Shown piece after piece: positions 41,519 to 44,202 of a stretch of 64,000 nt of DNA. Positions within the stretch are counted from its first letter, which is position 1; each line of letters starts with the position of its first letter. Origin of the DNA: a virus; the UHGV virus genome UHGV-0033085. One strand, 5' to 3'. A program made the position numbers and the translations under genes. Below the pieces are notes generated by a model. The model saw only the letters and a list, made by a program, of their open reading frames with translations, was not told where the DNA came from and did no database searches.

Positions 41519-41717
41519 ACGGGAGAAGGAAACGCTTCATGAAATCAGTAAGTGGCCGGAGTTCCCTGAGTACTGGAAGCCTAAAACGCGAGCTAAGTTA
41601 GAGCGTTTAGGGTTGGTTGCAAACGTTTCTGAAACGTGGTGTTCGGCCAACTACCAGTTAACTGATAAAGGGAAAGTATTGCTACAGCAATTAGTAGAAT
41701 CAGGAGCGTTAAAATGA
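41502..41717 (+). CDS. hypothetical protein
   Basis: 71-aa ORF. Confidence 0.3.
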   Translation: MIVLSKREKETLHEISKWPEFPEYWKPKTRAKLERLGLVANVSETWCSANYQLTDKGKVLLQQLVESGALK

Positions 41718-41866
41718 TTCCATACATCTCATTAGCTTTTATGGGTGGCTTCCTTATCGGCTTCGGCATCTGTCGTGATTTAATTAAGCAGGAACTTAAA
41801 ACCAAAACACTGTGCATCGGAAAGCGTGTGTATCGGGTAGTTCATGAAACAAAGGTGAAAAAATGA
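41714..41866 (+). CDS. small membrane protein (50 aa, not in ORF track)
   Basis: ATGA-coupled on both sides; start is a copy of the ATGATTCCATAC half-site. Confidence 0.3.
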   Translation: MIPYISLAFMGGFLIGFGICRDLIKQELKTKTLCIGKRVYRVVHETKVKK

Positions 41867-42163: not shown

Positions 42164-42185
42164 ATAAGTATTTACTTACTTATCT
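42164..42185. promoter_or_regulatory. palindromic motif GATAAGTATTTACTTACTTATC (dispersed motif family)
   Basis: Arms GATAAGTA / TACTTATC at start of tRNA/noncoding island. Confidence 0.4.
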
Positions 42186-42931
42186 TTTGTGTATAAGATG
42201 ACTTTGTTTTCGTTGAGACGCGACTGTTTGAACTTAAATACAAGTGCAAACGAAGAAGTCTATCTGGCAGTAGCCTAATAAGCCAAACACCAGCGAGGTC
42301 AGTTTCCAGCCTCGTTACCGAAATGGGACACACTGAGCGAGTGTGATTGCAGAACGCAGGAGGGAACATTCATGTTCCCTCCGATGAAGTAACAGAATGG
42401 GCGGTTGGTATATTTTCAACTCCATATGACTCCCGGATTCTTAGCCACTGACCGCCCATCCTGTTACGTCATTTTGTTCAATTATGTCGTTTATACTGGG
42501 TTAAAAAGCGGCGACGTAGCCCGGCTGGTATGGTTAGCCAGCACACAACGTTGAGGCCATTACATTTTTATCAATTCTAAGGTTCTATTCACAGAGATAC
42601 CGGCGAGCGTTGATATGTAACATGTTGGGCAAACATTCAATCGGAGTAGTGGCCTCAACGTTGTGAAGACAGGATTGTTGTGTAGGTTTAACCACTGTTG
42701 CCATTGGTGCCTGTTTTCACAACAAATGATTCCATACATCACATTGTATAAATTACAAAGTAGGTGCTGTCCTCAGAAACATCATCTACTTAAAGATTTT
42801 GCCTTCTACTATTGAGCGAAGTCGAAAGCGTCTGGCACTAACGAAAAGTGCAAGTAGCGGTGCGTTTCCTGGCAGAAACTAAACCGTCGCGATTGGCACT
42901 GTTGAGTAATAAATACTGGCAGTGCTGAATT

Positions 42932-43006
42932 GATGGTGTAGCTCAGCGGTAGAGCAGTTGGCTGTTAACCAACTGGTCGGTGGTTCGAATCCACCCACCA
43001 TCGCCA
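42932..43006 (+). tRNA. tRNA-Asn (anticodon GTT)
   Basis: Cloverleaf by hand: acceptor GATGGTG/CACCATC, anticodon loop CTGTTAA, T-loop GGTTCGAATCC, encoded CCA. Confidence 0.8.
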
Positions 43007-43011
43007 ATTTA

Positions 43012-43098
43012 GGGGAGTTAGTCCGTAGAGGTAGCGGTGTAGACTGTAAATCTACTGTCATGGCGACTCGGGTGGTTCGACTCCATCACTCCCCACCA
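43012..43098 (+). tRNA. tRNA-Tyr (anticodon GTA), long variable arm
   Basis: Acceptor GGGGAGT/ACTCCCC, anticodon arm GTAGA-CTGTAAA-TCTAC, T-loop GGTTCGACTCC, CCA. Confidence 0.75.
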
Positions 43099-43102
43099 AA
43101 TT

Positions 43103-43178
43103 GCCGGTTTAGCTCAGTTGGTAGAGCGCCTGCCTTGTAAGCAGGATGTCAGCGGTTCGAGTCCGTTAACCGGCACCA
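43103..43178 (+). tRNA. tRNA-Thr (anticodon TGT)
   Basis: Acceptor GCCGGTT/AACCGGC, anticodon arm CCTGC-CTTGTAA-GCAGG, T-loop GGTTCGAGTCC, CCA. Confidence 0.8.
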
Positions 43179-43541
43179 ACACAACAGGTAAGTGCATTGG
43201 GCGAATCGGCGATACTGACCCACAAGCCCGTAAATCGATAGAGTCAGACCAGTGCTCTTACCGTTGTGAGGAAGTGCAGCTCTTTGAGGCAACCAGAAGA
43301 TAAGCATCTGGCTTCACAACACAACGATAAGATCATTACGGTTAATCGTCGTTCATGTGCACAATGACTGGTCGAAAGGTAGTGATCTTACCGTTGTGGT
43401 GGATTCGCAGACTGATGCGATAGCTTTCTTGGATGTTAGGGAAATGCGGCCGCAAATCTTCCCTTTCGCGAGCGGTGATCGTCCGTAGTCCTAATTGGCT
43501 GCACCGTATGCCGGAGATTCAGTACCGGCCACCACAACGGC

Positions 43542-43628
43542 CGGAGAGTAGGGAGCATGGTGCTCAAGCGGTCTTGAAAACCGTCCCATTGCGCAAGCGA
43601 TGATGGTTCGATTCCATTACTCTCCGCC
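43542..43628 (+). tRNA. tRNA-Ser (anticodon TGA), long variable arm
   Basis: Acceptor GGAGAGT/ACTCTCC, anticodon arm GCGGT-CTTGAAA-ACCGT, T-loop GGTTCGATTCC, CCA. Confidence 0.7.
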
Positions 43629-43851
43629 AGACACAGCGTTGAGCGGTTTGGCCTTTTAATCACCCAGATTAAGACTCCGCTAACATAAACCAGACCGCTC
43701 AACGCTGTGATAGACAATTACGGCAGACGTTCTTAACCATAGCTTGCTAACATCCTAGCAACACTTTTTTTCAGCGCAAAATTCAAAGGGGCTTCGGCCA
43801 CTTTTTTTGCAACTGAAAGAGTCAAGTCTACGAACTTTGTAGGAAGAAATA

Positions 43852-44202
43852 ATGACCAGCAAAGAGAACACACCACTAAAAGTCACCCCTGAACACATTG
43901 AACAACTCATTCAAAGTGAACATTATTTCACTGCATATGATGCCAGCCACGGGGATAACTTCATCTCTGTTTACAATTCAAAAACAGATATCGACAAAGG
44001 TCATGAGTCGTTAAAACTCTTAACGTTCTGCGTTATGGTTCTCAAAAATGGATATACCGTAACGGGAAAATCTGCGTGCGTAAGACCAGAAATCTTCAAT
44101 TTTGATGTTGGTCGCGAGTACGCTCGAAAAGATGCTATCGATCAAATCTGGCCCCTGGAAGGCTATCTCCTGAAGCAAAAGTGGCATGAGGCAAAGCAAT
44201 GA
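43852..44202 (+). CDS. hypothetical protein
   Basis: 116-aa ORF, ATGA-coupled to downstream glutaredoxin-like frame. Confidence 0.4.
   Translation: MTSKENTPLKVTPEHIEQLIQSEHYFTAYDASHGDNFISVYNSKTDIDKGHESLKLLTFCVMVLKNGYTVTGKSACVRPEIFNFDVGREYARKDAIDQIWPLEGYLLKQKWHEAKQ

Follow-up and report, generated by a model that had tools for sequence, protein, structure and literature searches.

What is encoded in the DNA around phage tRNA genes when it holds no convincing protein-coding gene? We asked this of one such locus in the virus genome UHGV-0033085, analysed as a stretch of 64,000 nucleotides (nt; hereafter the window, with position 1 as its first letter). The window is identified as an SSU5-like Escherichia coli phage-plasmid, and the region studied is 96-99% identical to others of that kind (phage CMS-2020a, phage Cyrano). 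The original prediction had described 42359-43709 as a repeat-rich, structured non-coding island around four tRNA genes, with inverted repeats that might be tRNA-processing structures, small stable RNAs as in T4/T5 tRNA regions or miniature inverted-repeat elements. It had overlooked the swapping of RNA cassettes between relatives and, ending two bases upstream of its start, an element that opens the same transcript. This element, the tag cassette (42206-42357), looks like the messenger domain of transfer-messenger RNA (tmRNA, encoded by ssrA) without its tRNA-like domain, fused to a leader antisense to the host tmRNA. Our reading of the whole locus, to which we assign a probability of about 0.6, is an operon of RNA cassettes with a tag cassette that hijacks tmRNA.

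The tag cassette has a tmRNA-type reading frame

A weak match to the permuted tmRNA model of Rfam led us to read positions 42246-42281 as a tag frame (Table 1). For comparison, the E. coli tmRNA tag is ANDENYALAA followed by UAAUAA (from the ssrA sequence). The bases A at -4, A at -3 and U at -1 of the frame (A-A-N-U) were invariant in 52 unique leaders. In tmRNA, base -4 (A86) is nearly invariant and essential for the choice of frame (PMC2481249).

Tags were surveyed with a search pattern in which nothing but the leader motif and codons 1-3 was fixed, which gave 166 modules with 40 distinct tag DNAs. All 40 have exactly 10 codons and then a stop (TAA in 36, TAG in 2, TGA in 2). The excess of distinct bases at codon positions 1, 2 and 3 was 10, 7 and 19, the third position being the most variable, and the replacements were conservative (D/E, D/E/N, Y/F/M/V, L/M, A/M/V/I, V/A, A). 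Besides ANEEVYLAVA of the window, the peptides include ANDNQYLAVA, ANDDLMMVAA (P1), ANDDVVLMAA, ANEERFLMAA and ANDNYALAAA. The tag thus diverges from the host tag in nucleotides and stays tag-like in peptide, a pattern of substitution that shows constraint of the translated type.

An ordinary small open reading frame (ORF) was considered for this segment and excluded, because an in-frame TAG stands eight codons before the tag, with no ATG, GTG or TTG between, both in PJ16 and in the commonest (HK620-like) leader type. No start codon is conserved for the frame, and most modules have an in-frame stop upstream and no start codon. An in-frame ATG, at 42198 in the window, is peculiar to the SSU5-like lineage and would open a 26-amino-acid ORF (MTLFSLRRDCLNLNTSANEEVYLAVA); it overlaps the putative -10 element, and no Shine-Dalgarno sequence was found for it.

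Two pseudoknots, PKa and PKb, both lie downstream of the tag; the upstream pseudoknot of tmRNA (PK1) is absent and the antisense leader stands in its place. Because register shifts in SSU5-like and P1-like rows made column-wise counting of pairs on a MAFFT alignment unsuitable, 108 unique sequences were parsed by fixed anchors and compared with partner-shuffled controls. The stem between the PKa loop and its downstream partner was 96% canonical, against 60% (maximum 67%) with shuffled partners, and 4 of 4 positions change on both sides (CCGA/UCGG in 40 sequences, UUCC/GGGA in 24, GUCG/CGAC in 14, CCAG/CUGG in 12, CCAA/UUGG in 11). Stem 1 of PKb was 99.8% canonical with compensatory changes at 3 of 5 positions (CGCAC/GUGUG, CACAC/GUGUG, CGCAG/CUGUG, CGCAU/AUGUG, CGUAC/GUAUG). 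Stem 2 was 92% canonical with such changes at 4 of 4 (GCCC/GGGC, CCGU/ACGG, CCAC/GUGG, CUGA/UCAG); in SSU5-like sequences, including the window, it reads AGCG/CGCA with an outer A-A mismatch.

We looked for a tRNA-like domain in cis with ARAGORN at default and relaxed settings, with the Rfam tmRNA models and by inspection of cassette C and of cassettes with T-arms (described below), and found nothing chargeable. At default, ARAGORN called no tmRNA or tRNA-like domain in the window; in 361 related loci (3.09 Mb) it made one tmRNA call, assembled from pieces that overlap real tRNAs 300-570 nt away from the tag. At 85% of its thresholds it reported permuted tmRNAs ('tmRNAp') in P1 and Carvaje, with correct tags and unconvincing tRNA domains. 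Against five Rfam tmRNA models (RF00023, RF01849, RF01850, RF01851, RF04321) the best scores of the tag cassette were 17-30 bits, with thresholds of 47-84, and these models align the tag region only. Likeness to ssrA in the sense orientation is likewise confined to the tag region.

The leader is complementary to host tmRNA

The tag cassette always begins with GUUUUCGU, the first of two leader blocks complementary to ssrA (Table 1). In the window the pairing covers U85, A86 and the resume codon G90-C91 of ssrA; in other phages the complementarity lies within ssrA nt 58-105. The antisense strand of E. coli ssrA 104-58 reads GTTTTCGTC-GTTT-GCGACTATTTTTTGCGGCTTTTTACGAGGCCAACC, and the commonest leader, GTTTTCGTC-ACGTTA-GCGACTT-TGCGGGCTTTTTA-GAAACTGACC, aligns with it block by block.

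Raw RNAduplex energies were dropped as evidence of pairing, and alignment scores and composition-matched shuffles were kept. In local alignments with ssrA, the reverse-complemented leaders of P1, PJ16 and Michonne beat 340 of 340 background chunks of 363 nt each, and that of HK620 beat 339; for four of six leaders, 0-1 of the 340 chunks scored as well. The commonest leader scored 39.5, compared with 16.0 +/- 3.0 in 8000 masked chunks, of which the few with higher scores are probably residual homologues. Mononucleotide shuffles reached the duplex energy of the leader in 0/100 cases for HK620 and P1, 1/100 for PJ16, 4/100 for Michonne and 13/100 for the window.

In all five leader variants the best duplex ended at ssrA 105-106, and all cofold models paired phage nt 1 with ssrA 104, with a predicted free-energy difference (ddG) of -2 to -13 kcal/mol. 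Between the leader and the phage's own tag region we found 4-7 bp at most, not conserved. From the end of the duplex to the phage resume codon, 9-17 nt are unpaired. In tmRNA, 12 nt separate PK1 from the resume codon, and both PK1 (by unrelated sequence) and the tag sequence can be replaced (PMC2481249).

The tag cassette is widespread in enterobacterial phages and plasmids

Homologues of the tag cassette were found in 405 phage records, including Felix-O1-like phages, HK620, Klebsiella siphophages and SSU5, and in more than 120 IMG/VR contigs per scan. P1 and P7 also have it, inside their C1-controlled ban operon. The complete E. coli genomes searched numbered 5426, of which 350 carry it, in 141 chromosomal and 219 plasmid places, and no RNA gene was annotated at the tag cassette among the E. 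coli genome matches listed. Species representatives of Buttiauxella, Kluyvera, Pseudocitrobacter, Rouxiella, Erwinia, Pantoea and Escherichia have it too. The tag cassette of Michonne is solitary, with a TTGACA-17-TAAGAT promoter of its own and an ordinary tRNA on either side; in Cyrano it is present and cassette C is absent.

A probable operon of structured RNAs

Positions ~42206 to ~43808 of the + strand very probably form a single protein-free transcription unit of ~1.6 kb, with four tRNAs and at least nine independently folding RNA cassettes (Table 1). On one side the island is neighboured by small ORFs downstream of a DNA ligase gene and on the other by a gene block ending in an integrase; the next ORF after the operon starts at 43852. 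No ORF within the island is conserved across relatives, in agreement with the non-coding nature first proposed for it. The likely transcript start, ~42206, is the first base of the conserved GUUUUCGU, and Mooglevirus Michonne and SSU5 have an identical -10 element at identical spacing. Since a strict consensus scan did not report the promoter, we can only infer it. The terminator-like hairpins have weak stems and were also absent from the listing of that scan; the second stem is mismatched in the window (GGGGC...GCCAC) and perfect in Cyrano and CMS-2020a (GGGGC...GCCCC).

Table 1. Features of the RNA island and its borders (window coordinates)
Feature	Position	Strand	Details
Putative sigma-70 promoter	42171-42199	+	-35 TTTACT 42171-42176, -10 TAAGAT 42194-42199; read from sequence
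Antisense leader	42206-42229	+	GUUUUCGU 42206-42213 with ssrA 97-104; GCGACUGUUU 42220-42229 with ssrA 82-91
A-rich single-stranded linker	42230-42245	+	ends ...ACAAGU
tmRNA-type tag frame	42246-42281	+	GCA AAC GAA GAA GTC TAT CTG GCA GTA GCC TAA TAA = ANEEVYLAVA, two stops
Pseudoknot PKa	42293-42328	+	GCGAGG 42293-42298 with CCUCGU 42310-42315; loop UUCC 42304-42307 with GGGA 42325-42328
Pseudoknot PKb	42329-42357	+	CACACU 42329-42334 with AGUGUG 42340-42345; GCG 42337-42339 with CGC 42355-42357
Hairpin G	42359-42382	+	perfect 11-bp arms, 2-nt gap (RNA fold: 10 bp, 4-nt loop)
Cassette F	42384-42472	+	24-bp interrupted stem, 39-nt loop
Two conserved hairpins	42482-42491/42510-42519 and 42524-42529/42537-42542	+
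Cassette E	42544-42665	+	20-bp closing stem CACAACGUUGAGGCCAUUAC / GUAGUGGCCUCAACGUUGUG, branched 82-nt interior
Hairpin	42660-42723	+	GUUGUGAAGACAGG / CCUGUUUUCACAAC; GUUGUG shared with cassette E 3' strand
Single-stranded conserved motif, then hairpins up to tRNA-Asn	42724-42931	+	AAUGAUUCCAUACAUC at 42725-42740
tRNA-Asn(GUU)	42932-43006	+	ARAGORN, Rfam
tRNA-Tyr(GUA)	43012-43098	+	ARAGORN, Rfam
tRNA-Thr(UGU)	43103-43178	+	ARAGORN, Rfam
Cassette A	43180-43268	+	closing stem CACAAC-AGGUAAGUGCA / UGCUCUUACC-GUUGUG
Hairpin H	43263-43320	+	GUUGUGAGG / GCUUCACAAC; 93-96% identity to P1, P7, D6
Cassette B	43317-43401	+	~21-bp stem; conserved core AAUCGUCGU-hairpin-CUGGUCGAAAG
Cassette C, tRNA-elbow-like RNA	43391-43540	+	12-bp closing helix, two hairpins, variable centre
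tRNA-Ser(UGA)	43543-43629	+	ARAGORN, Rfam
Cassette D	43632-43709	+	near-perfect 20-bp stem CACAGCGUUGAGCGGUUUGG / CCAGACCGCUCAACGCUGUG
Pair of terminator-like hairpins, a T-run after each	43744-43771 and 43788-43808	+	probable ends of the operon

All inverted and direct repeats that had been listed for the island were recovered with small corrections of coordinates, and most proved to be parts of larger stems. The 11-bp arms 42359-42369/42372-42382 are perfect as described. The pair 42390-42405/42450-42467 is the core of a 22-nt, 91% arm pair (42384-42405/42451-42472), and 43187-43196/43253-43262 is the inner part of a ~20-bp stem (43180-43199/43249-43268). Two pairs grow to 20-nt arms, namely 42543-42559/42650-42665 (to 42544-42563/42646-42665) and 43632-43647/43694-43709 (to 43632-43651/43690-43709). 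The arm 43391-43402 is where it had been placed, and its partner lies at 43529-43540, one base from the 43528-43539 first given. The direct repeat CTTACCGTTGTG occurs at 43257 and 43387. Two further hairpins had gone unlisted (43317-43339/43379-43401 and 42660-42673/42710-42723).

The hexamers CACAAC and GTTGTG occur 6 and 4 times in the 1.6-kb island, against 18 and 17 times in the remaining 62 kb, a density 9-13 times that of the rest of the window. They alternate in orientation, so that each closes two neighbouring hairpins. Seven cassettes are bounded by CACAAC/GUUGUG (CACAGC/GCUGUG in cassette D); hairpin G and cassette F are not. Most closing stems have 9-24 bp, the largest ones 12-24 bp. 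Cassettes B, D, E and F reach 20-24 bp; RNase III needs ~20 bp of near-perfect double-stranded RNA.

Each element was folded as single-stranded RNA and compared with 200 dinucleotide shuffles. The z-scores were -4.7 (42357-42384), -5.1 (42384-42472), -6.7 (42544-42665), -3.3 (42660-42723), -4.2 (43180-43268), -5.0 (43317-43401) and -11.1 (43630-43711), and in these seven stronger elements 0-1 of 200 shuffles folded as well. Hairpin H (z = -2.0 for 43263-43320) and cassette C (z = -2.4 for 43391-43540) were the weakest folds. A brute-force census of 14-bp hairpins in 173 arrays was too permissive to inform, and a long-range 'P2' helix (42218-42228/42881-42891, 10 of 11 bp) was rejected, being conserved neither in close relatives nor in SSU5, where its 3' strand forms a local hairpin instead.

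ARAGORN and the Rfam tRNA model bore out the four tRNAs and found only these at default. Nothing new in the window appeared with ARAGORN at 85% of its thresholds, so that the suggested degenerate tRNAs were not recovered; at 70% its calls included some on the reverse strand, some that overlap and some with undetermined anticodons, and we took them as noise. The Rfam search of the window returned no known family besides tRNAs even at E <= 10, with 0 matches to Y RNA, HEARO, ribozymes or other families.

RNA structure is conserved in the cassettes

In 23 diverged SSU5-like sequences, conservation spans the full ~700 nt between the likely transcript start and tRNA-Asn. Among these relatives, compensatory pairs numbered 4 in hairpin G, 2 in cassette F (with 5 one-sided changes) and 2 in cassette E (with 3 one-sided). 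In homologues collected by BLAST, 7 pairs of hairpin H, 9 of cassette B and 8 of cassette C changed on both sides. The comparison across related genomes that had been proposed as a check thus found the paired arms conserved and the helices covarying in related phages, a pattern that shows the cassettes to be conserved RNA structures. As the region is non-coding and its hairpins are part of such structures, small stable RNAs come closest of the three guesses first offered.

Cassette C was followed in 78 unique sequences from 104 instances. Relatives share a closing helix, (GUU)GUGGUG/CACCAC(AAC), and a variable centre, the whole module measuring ~60 to 220 nt. In the window, a hairpin UCGC-AGACUGAU-GCGA begins two bases past the 5' strand (in relatives GCG/CGC, UCG/CGA or GCA/UGC), and a second, GCCGG-AGAUUCAGUA-CCGGC, abuts the 3' strand (in relatives GCCGG/CCGGC, GUCGG/CCGAC, GCUGG/CCAGC or GCAGG/CCUGC). 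The conserved loops AGGCUGAU and AGAUCAGCA are mutually complementary; at the one loop-loop position left free by the search pattern we counted G:C 54, G:U 11, A:U 4 and A:C 1 times. In the predicted layout the 3' hairpin stacks on the closing helix and its loop is kissed by the 5' hairpin, an arrangement like that of the acceptor/T-arm/D-arm 'top half' of tRNA. Cassette C has no NCCA end, and its third pair is G:C (G3:C70), where alanyl-tRNA synthetase (AlaRS) needs G3:U70. In the phages Carvaje, P1 and L024, long-stem cassettes have perfect T-arms, each adjoining the 3' strand. The Y RNA model (YrlA, RF02553) had no match on the cassettes and only weak ones on real tRNAs; the order of parts in YrlA differs from that of the T-arm cassettes.

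The cassettes of the window had no match to the STnc100 model (RF02076) at E <= 10. The terminal cassette of the P1/P7 arrays scored 33-43 bits, below the threshold of 47, and an rV5-like viral contig (L082, 1118-1331, - strand) carries a bona fide STnc100 of 48.7 bits, which follows the tag cassette of that contig by ~1 kb on the same strand. Sub-threshold antisense matches to the Yersinia sRNA (small RNA) Ysr251 came from two SSU5-like contigs (L028, L053), in the first of them ~1 kb past the tRNAs.

The core of cassette B (43341-43349) contains AUCGUCGU, where DE16 and PJ16 have GAUCGUCGU; the window copy has the closing stem AAGAUC/GAUCUU. The core and stem of cassette B seem to match the 5' acceptor/D-arm region of E. 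coli tRNA-Sec (GGAAGAUCGUCGUC...), a likeness that may be coincidence. Further upstream, the 22 nt AAATGATTCCATACATCACATT (42724-42745) are 95% identical to 41712-41733, the translation start of a small ORF at 41714-41866 (MIPYIS...). Their 16-nt core AAUGAUUCCAUACAUC is among the best-conserved unpaired segments of the SSU5-like relatives, in which no ORF is conserved after it; the SSU5 version would give only MIPYIQ and a stop. The stretch could be a mimic or decoy of the ribosome-binding region of the upstream ORF, or a site for a shared regulator.

Cassettes are exchanged as units

Between tRNA-Thr and tRNA-Ser lie 364 nt of spacer, for which 18 E. coli plasmids show 99-100% identity. Only these 18 hold the spacer in full among 925 matching plasmids, hundreds of which stop at position 239. 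Cyrano lacks 43185-43542, hence also cassette A, and has 8 bases from tRNA-Thr to tRNA-Ser; it lacks tRNA-Tyr as well. CMS-2020a lacks exactly cassettes A and H (its junction reads ...CACCA, ATACAAC, GATAAG...). The breakpoints fall at ACACAAC, a shared repeat, and no target-site duplications were seen there. Sequence comparison of close relatives thus shows cassettes gained, lost and recombined as units. At 43009-43070, tRNA-Tyr is itself an insertion polymorphism, present in the window and CMS-2020a and absent in Cyrano, and SSU5 has only tRNA-Asn annotated; the tRNA content therefore varies like the RNA cassettes.

Parts of the same spacer match quite different phages: 43251-43324 P1, P7, D6 and Sashavirus, 43313-43401 rV5-like phages, 43383-43538 Klebsiella Jedunavirus and 43179-43324 Nonanavirus. 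Overall, cassettes recur across P1/P7, HK620, Felix-O1-like, rV5-like and 9NA-like phages, so that unrelated enterobacterial groups have the same cassettes, usually inside tRNA arrays or late or early leaders. In all phages examined they are co-directional with the tRNAs and the tag cassette. The rV5-like phage DE16 has tRNA-Thr, cassette A, a linker hairpin and cassette B in the same order within an array of 10 tRNAs. In PJ16, cassettes lie between capsid and neck genes with no tRNAs nearby. A solitary cassette C follows a free-standing HNH endonuclease gene by <=60 nt in Klebsiella phage BUCT_49532 (L003, 1863-2657), a hint that some cassettes may travel with homing-endonuclease genes.

The whole stretch from pR'/qut to the late terminator tQ is occupied in HK620 by the array, an unusually long leader of ~650 nt made up entirely of cassettes (a long-stem cassette, the tag cassette, another long-stem cassette, cassette C; L007, 1724-2395). 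We take this leader to be the analogue of the short 6S leader RNA of lambda and assume, from lambdoid late promoters in general, that it is made even without Q. In P1 and P7 the array lies in the leader of the C1-controlled ban operon and continues, on the opposite strand, under the annotated plp and upl ORFs. In P1 (NC_005856, 69472-70041) plp ('putative lipoprotein') and upl oppose long-stem cassettes, hairpin H and a T-arm cassette among them; the P7 annotation shows no ORFs at this place, and plp and upl are probably not real genes. The P1 tag cassette starts right after the terminator of an annotated 'dicF-like region' (L130, 120-221 and 213-395). Given this place inside the C1-repressed ban operon, derepressed P1 would co-express a DicF-like RNA, the tmRNA-like RNA, two tRNAs and several cassettes.

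A proposed mode of action and its alternatives

We think it probable, with good though not overwhelming confidence, that the tag cassette acts on or through host trans-translation. A replacement of the template is our tentative proposal for how it works. The messenger-half RNA would anneal by its leader to the host tmRNA and mask the host tag template (U85, A86, G90-C91 and codons 3-5), the leader standing in for PK1. Once the nascent chain has passed to Ala-tmRNA-SmpB, the phage resume codon, 9-17 nt from the duplex, would enter the empty mRNA channel. With the host template masked and the phage resume codon near the duplex, rescued ribosomes would tag from the phage template. Termination at the phage stop would free the ribosome and a protein with a phage-chosen tag (AANEEVYLAVA here, AANDDLMMVAA in P1). 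Such a system would be a three-piece trans-translation machine of host and virus, and its neighbours may be a shuffled RNA toolkit that reprograms translation and RNA metabolism of the host, with tRNA-elbow mimics, STnc100-like sRNAs and the dicF-like region of P1 among its parts; we hold both extensions as tentatively as the proposal itself. Plaque formation of lambda-immP22 requires host trans-translation, ribosome release being sufficient, which makes it plausible that a phage would manipulate trans-translation rather than destroy it. Further along the transcript, RNase III would cut the long stems, and RNase P and RNase E would process the tRNAs and the tRNA-like cassettes; mature tRNAs and a group of small stable RNAs would be set free. 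Sequence comparison shows the constraint on the tag, the pseudoknots, the lack of a tRNA-like domain and the complementarity of the leader; expression, pairing in vivo and resumption on a tethered template are predicted steps.

Several points weigh against this reading. The SSU5-type leader of the window pairs over only 8 + 10 bp and is not significant by itself (61 of 340 chunks and 13 of 100 shuffles do as well); it is colinear with the longer homologous leaders that are significant. In a sliding scan, GC-rich windows of either strand reached similar raw duplex energies, which therefore do not discriminate. Part of the leader set was chosen by a search pattern that included GTTTTCGT; an earlier search by tag only found the same motif in 21 of 21 representatives. 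Salmonella ssrA presumably mismatches one leader base, yet SSU5 keeps the motif. The C-termini of the tags vary (LAVA, MVAA, LMAA), so that one common fate of tagged proteins is not evident. We know of no example of a ribosome that resumes on a template merely base-paired to the messenger region of tmRNA. Promoter and terminators fail the strict consensus scan and the operon is known here from its sequence; RNase III processing is suggested by stem length.

The complementarity to ssrA 58-105 would equally suit an antisense inhibitor or sponge of host tmRNA, with the messenger domain of the latter blocked or destroyed (for example by RNase III) and the tag frame never translated. Phage-encoded anti-sRNAs do exist (AgvB and AsxR, listed as prophage sRNAs in bioRxiv 10.64898/2026.05.13.724894), and a molecule with a tRNA-like domain only, of which mycobacteriophage DS6A encodes one, is reported to inhibit tmRNA (PMC4131195). 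An untranslated frame, however, should not keep 10 codons and A at -4 while swapping TAA, TAG and TGA and varying at third positions, nor should its peptide stay tag-like after divergence from the host in nucleotides; moreover, lambda-immP22 needs trans-translation, not its loss. We regard a purely antisense role as unlikely. It seems very unlikely to us that the tag cassette is the coding piece of a phage two-piece tmRNA with a neighbouring tRNA-like cassette as acceptor, for which the host tmRNA would not be needed. Candidate acceptors are at hand in the T-arm cassettes of P1, Carvaje and L024, long-stem cassettes that often adjoin the tag cassette, and in cassette C of the window with its acceptor/D/T-like layout, and the relaxed ARAGORN calls in P1 and Carvaje are permuted tmRNAs with the correct tag. 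But no credible tmRNA emerged at default from the 361 loci, no cassette that we read ends in NCCA, and cassette C has the wrong third pair for AlaRS. The tag cassettes of Michonne and Cyrano have no such partner nearby, and the antisense leader would be left unexplained.

For the remaining cassettes, a part in tRNA processing is plausible, since perfect 20-bp stems flank tRNAs. Taken further, this would make all hairpins passive spacers (processing signals, 3'-end stabilisers, terminators) that are shared through recombination of tRNA clusters. The hairpins do neighbour tRNAs or separate them, several closing stems are as long as the ~20 bp needed by RNase III, and the CACAAC/GTTGTG ends could be recombination microhomologies. 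Passive spacers nevertheless seem quite unlikely, given that conservation and covariation are as good in the interiors as in the closing stems (the cassette B core, the kissing loops of cassette C), that cassettes occur without tRNAs in HK620 (pR'-tQ), PJ16 (capsid-neck) and BUCT_49532 (after the HNH gene), and that the last P1/P7 cassette resembles the Hfq-type sRNA STnc100. Selfish DNA elements (miniature inverted-repeat, REP or attC-like) or binding sites, rather than RNA genes, would account for the inverted repeats at the termini, the precise presence/absence polymorphism and the 6-bp motif that the ends share. The earlier suggestion of miniature inverted-repeat elements did not hold up, as the remaining 62 kb of the window contain 0 dispersed copies and the pairing is strand-specific, with compensatory changes and many G-U pairs. 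Read from the opposite strand, many conserved G-U pairs would turn into A-C mismatches, as in 80 of the 108 sequences at one position of PKb. With breakpoints inside a shared repeat instead of target-site duplications, and orientation always that of the tRNAs and the tag cassette, an explanation at the DNA level is highly improbable.

Relation to known systems

If the hijacking of host tmRNA by a viral template is correct, an RNA that gives the template only and borrows the tRNA-like domain of the host would be a new takeover of translation quality control. tmRNA has been studied for 30 years as a self-contained molecule; here, a tag template would act in trans by means of an antisense tether, which might help explain the dependence of some phages on host trans-translation. 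The tag cassette sits in P1, where its neighbouring cassettes are partly covered by the doubtful ORFs plp and upl, and in phage-plasmids common in clinical E. coli, Klebsiella and Salmonella. Should the antisense part alone hold, tmRNA would join the host RNAs targeted by phage sRNAs. Phage tRNA regions would in addition hold a large unannotated repertoire of exchangeable structured RNAs.

T4/T5 tRNA regions yield small stable RNAs, and the cassettes of the window are similarly structured non-tRNA RNAs that would be co-transcribed with phage tRNAs. The window would differ from those regions in having a shuffled repertoire of several families shared across phage groups. Cassette C and the T-arm cassettes are also like plant mitochondrial t-elements and mascRNA, in that they imitate the acceptor/T-arm 'top half' recognised by RNase P.

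Among small RNAs of enterobacterial phages, the tag cassette can be compared with AgvB/AsxR and with STnc100 and PasA-D, Hfq sRNAs from prophages in pathogenic E. coli. AgvB and AsxR act by pairing with core host RNAs, in an anti-sRNA mode; unlike theirs, the target of the tag RNA would be tmRNA and not a regulatory sRNA, and the tag RNA carries a template of the translated type. STnc100 and PasD are related prophage sRNAs with seed regions (bioRxiv 10.64898/2026.05.13.724894). An identity with the Pas sRNAs was rejected on distribution, as these are almost all chromosomal, and each has its own terminator, unlike the tag cassette.

The closest likeness is to tmRNA itself, especially to the coding piece of two-piece tmRNAs: a GCA resume codon after an A-rich stretch with A at -4, a 10-codon tag that opens with AN(D/E), has a hydrophobic, Ala-rich C-terminus and ends in one or two stops, and pseudoknots downstream. 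Unlike tmRNA, the tag cassette lacks an acceptor stem, T-arm and CCA in cis, lacks PK1, scores below all Rfam gathering thresholds, is encoded by phages or phage-plasmids, often has its own promoter and carries a leader antisense to the host tmRNA. Full-text literature searches on phage-encoded or tmRNA-like RNAs in these phages yielded no description of it. An exhaustive tmRNA census of 2014, which took in plasmid as well as viral genomes, recorded phage ssrA only in eight mycobacteriophages, in Bacillus phage G and as a 'TLD only' (tRNA-like domain only) gene in DS6A; the tag cassette is absent from that census, whose dataset may not include P1 (PMC4131195).

With the tmRNAs of Bxz1-like mycobacteriophages and of phage G and with the 'TLD-only' gene of DS6A, the tag cassette shares the nature of a phage-encoded tmRNA derivative. 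DS6A is a phage with one half of a tmRNA, thought to interfere with host trans-translation (PMC4131195). It keeps the tRNA-like half, whereas the tag cassette keeps the messenger half with an antisense tether and has Enterobacterales as hosts. Because the messenger half is kept and the tRNA half is not, the tag cassette can be seen as the mirror image of DS6A, combined with a function of the anti-sRNA type.

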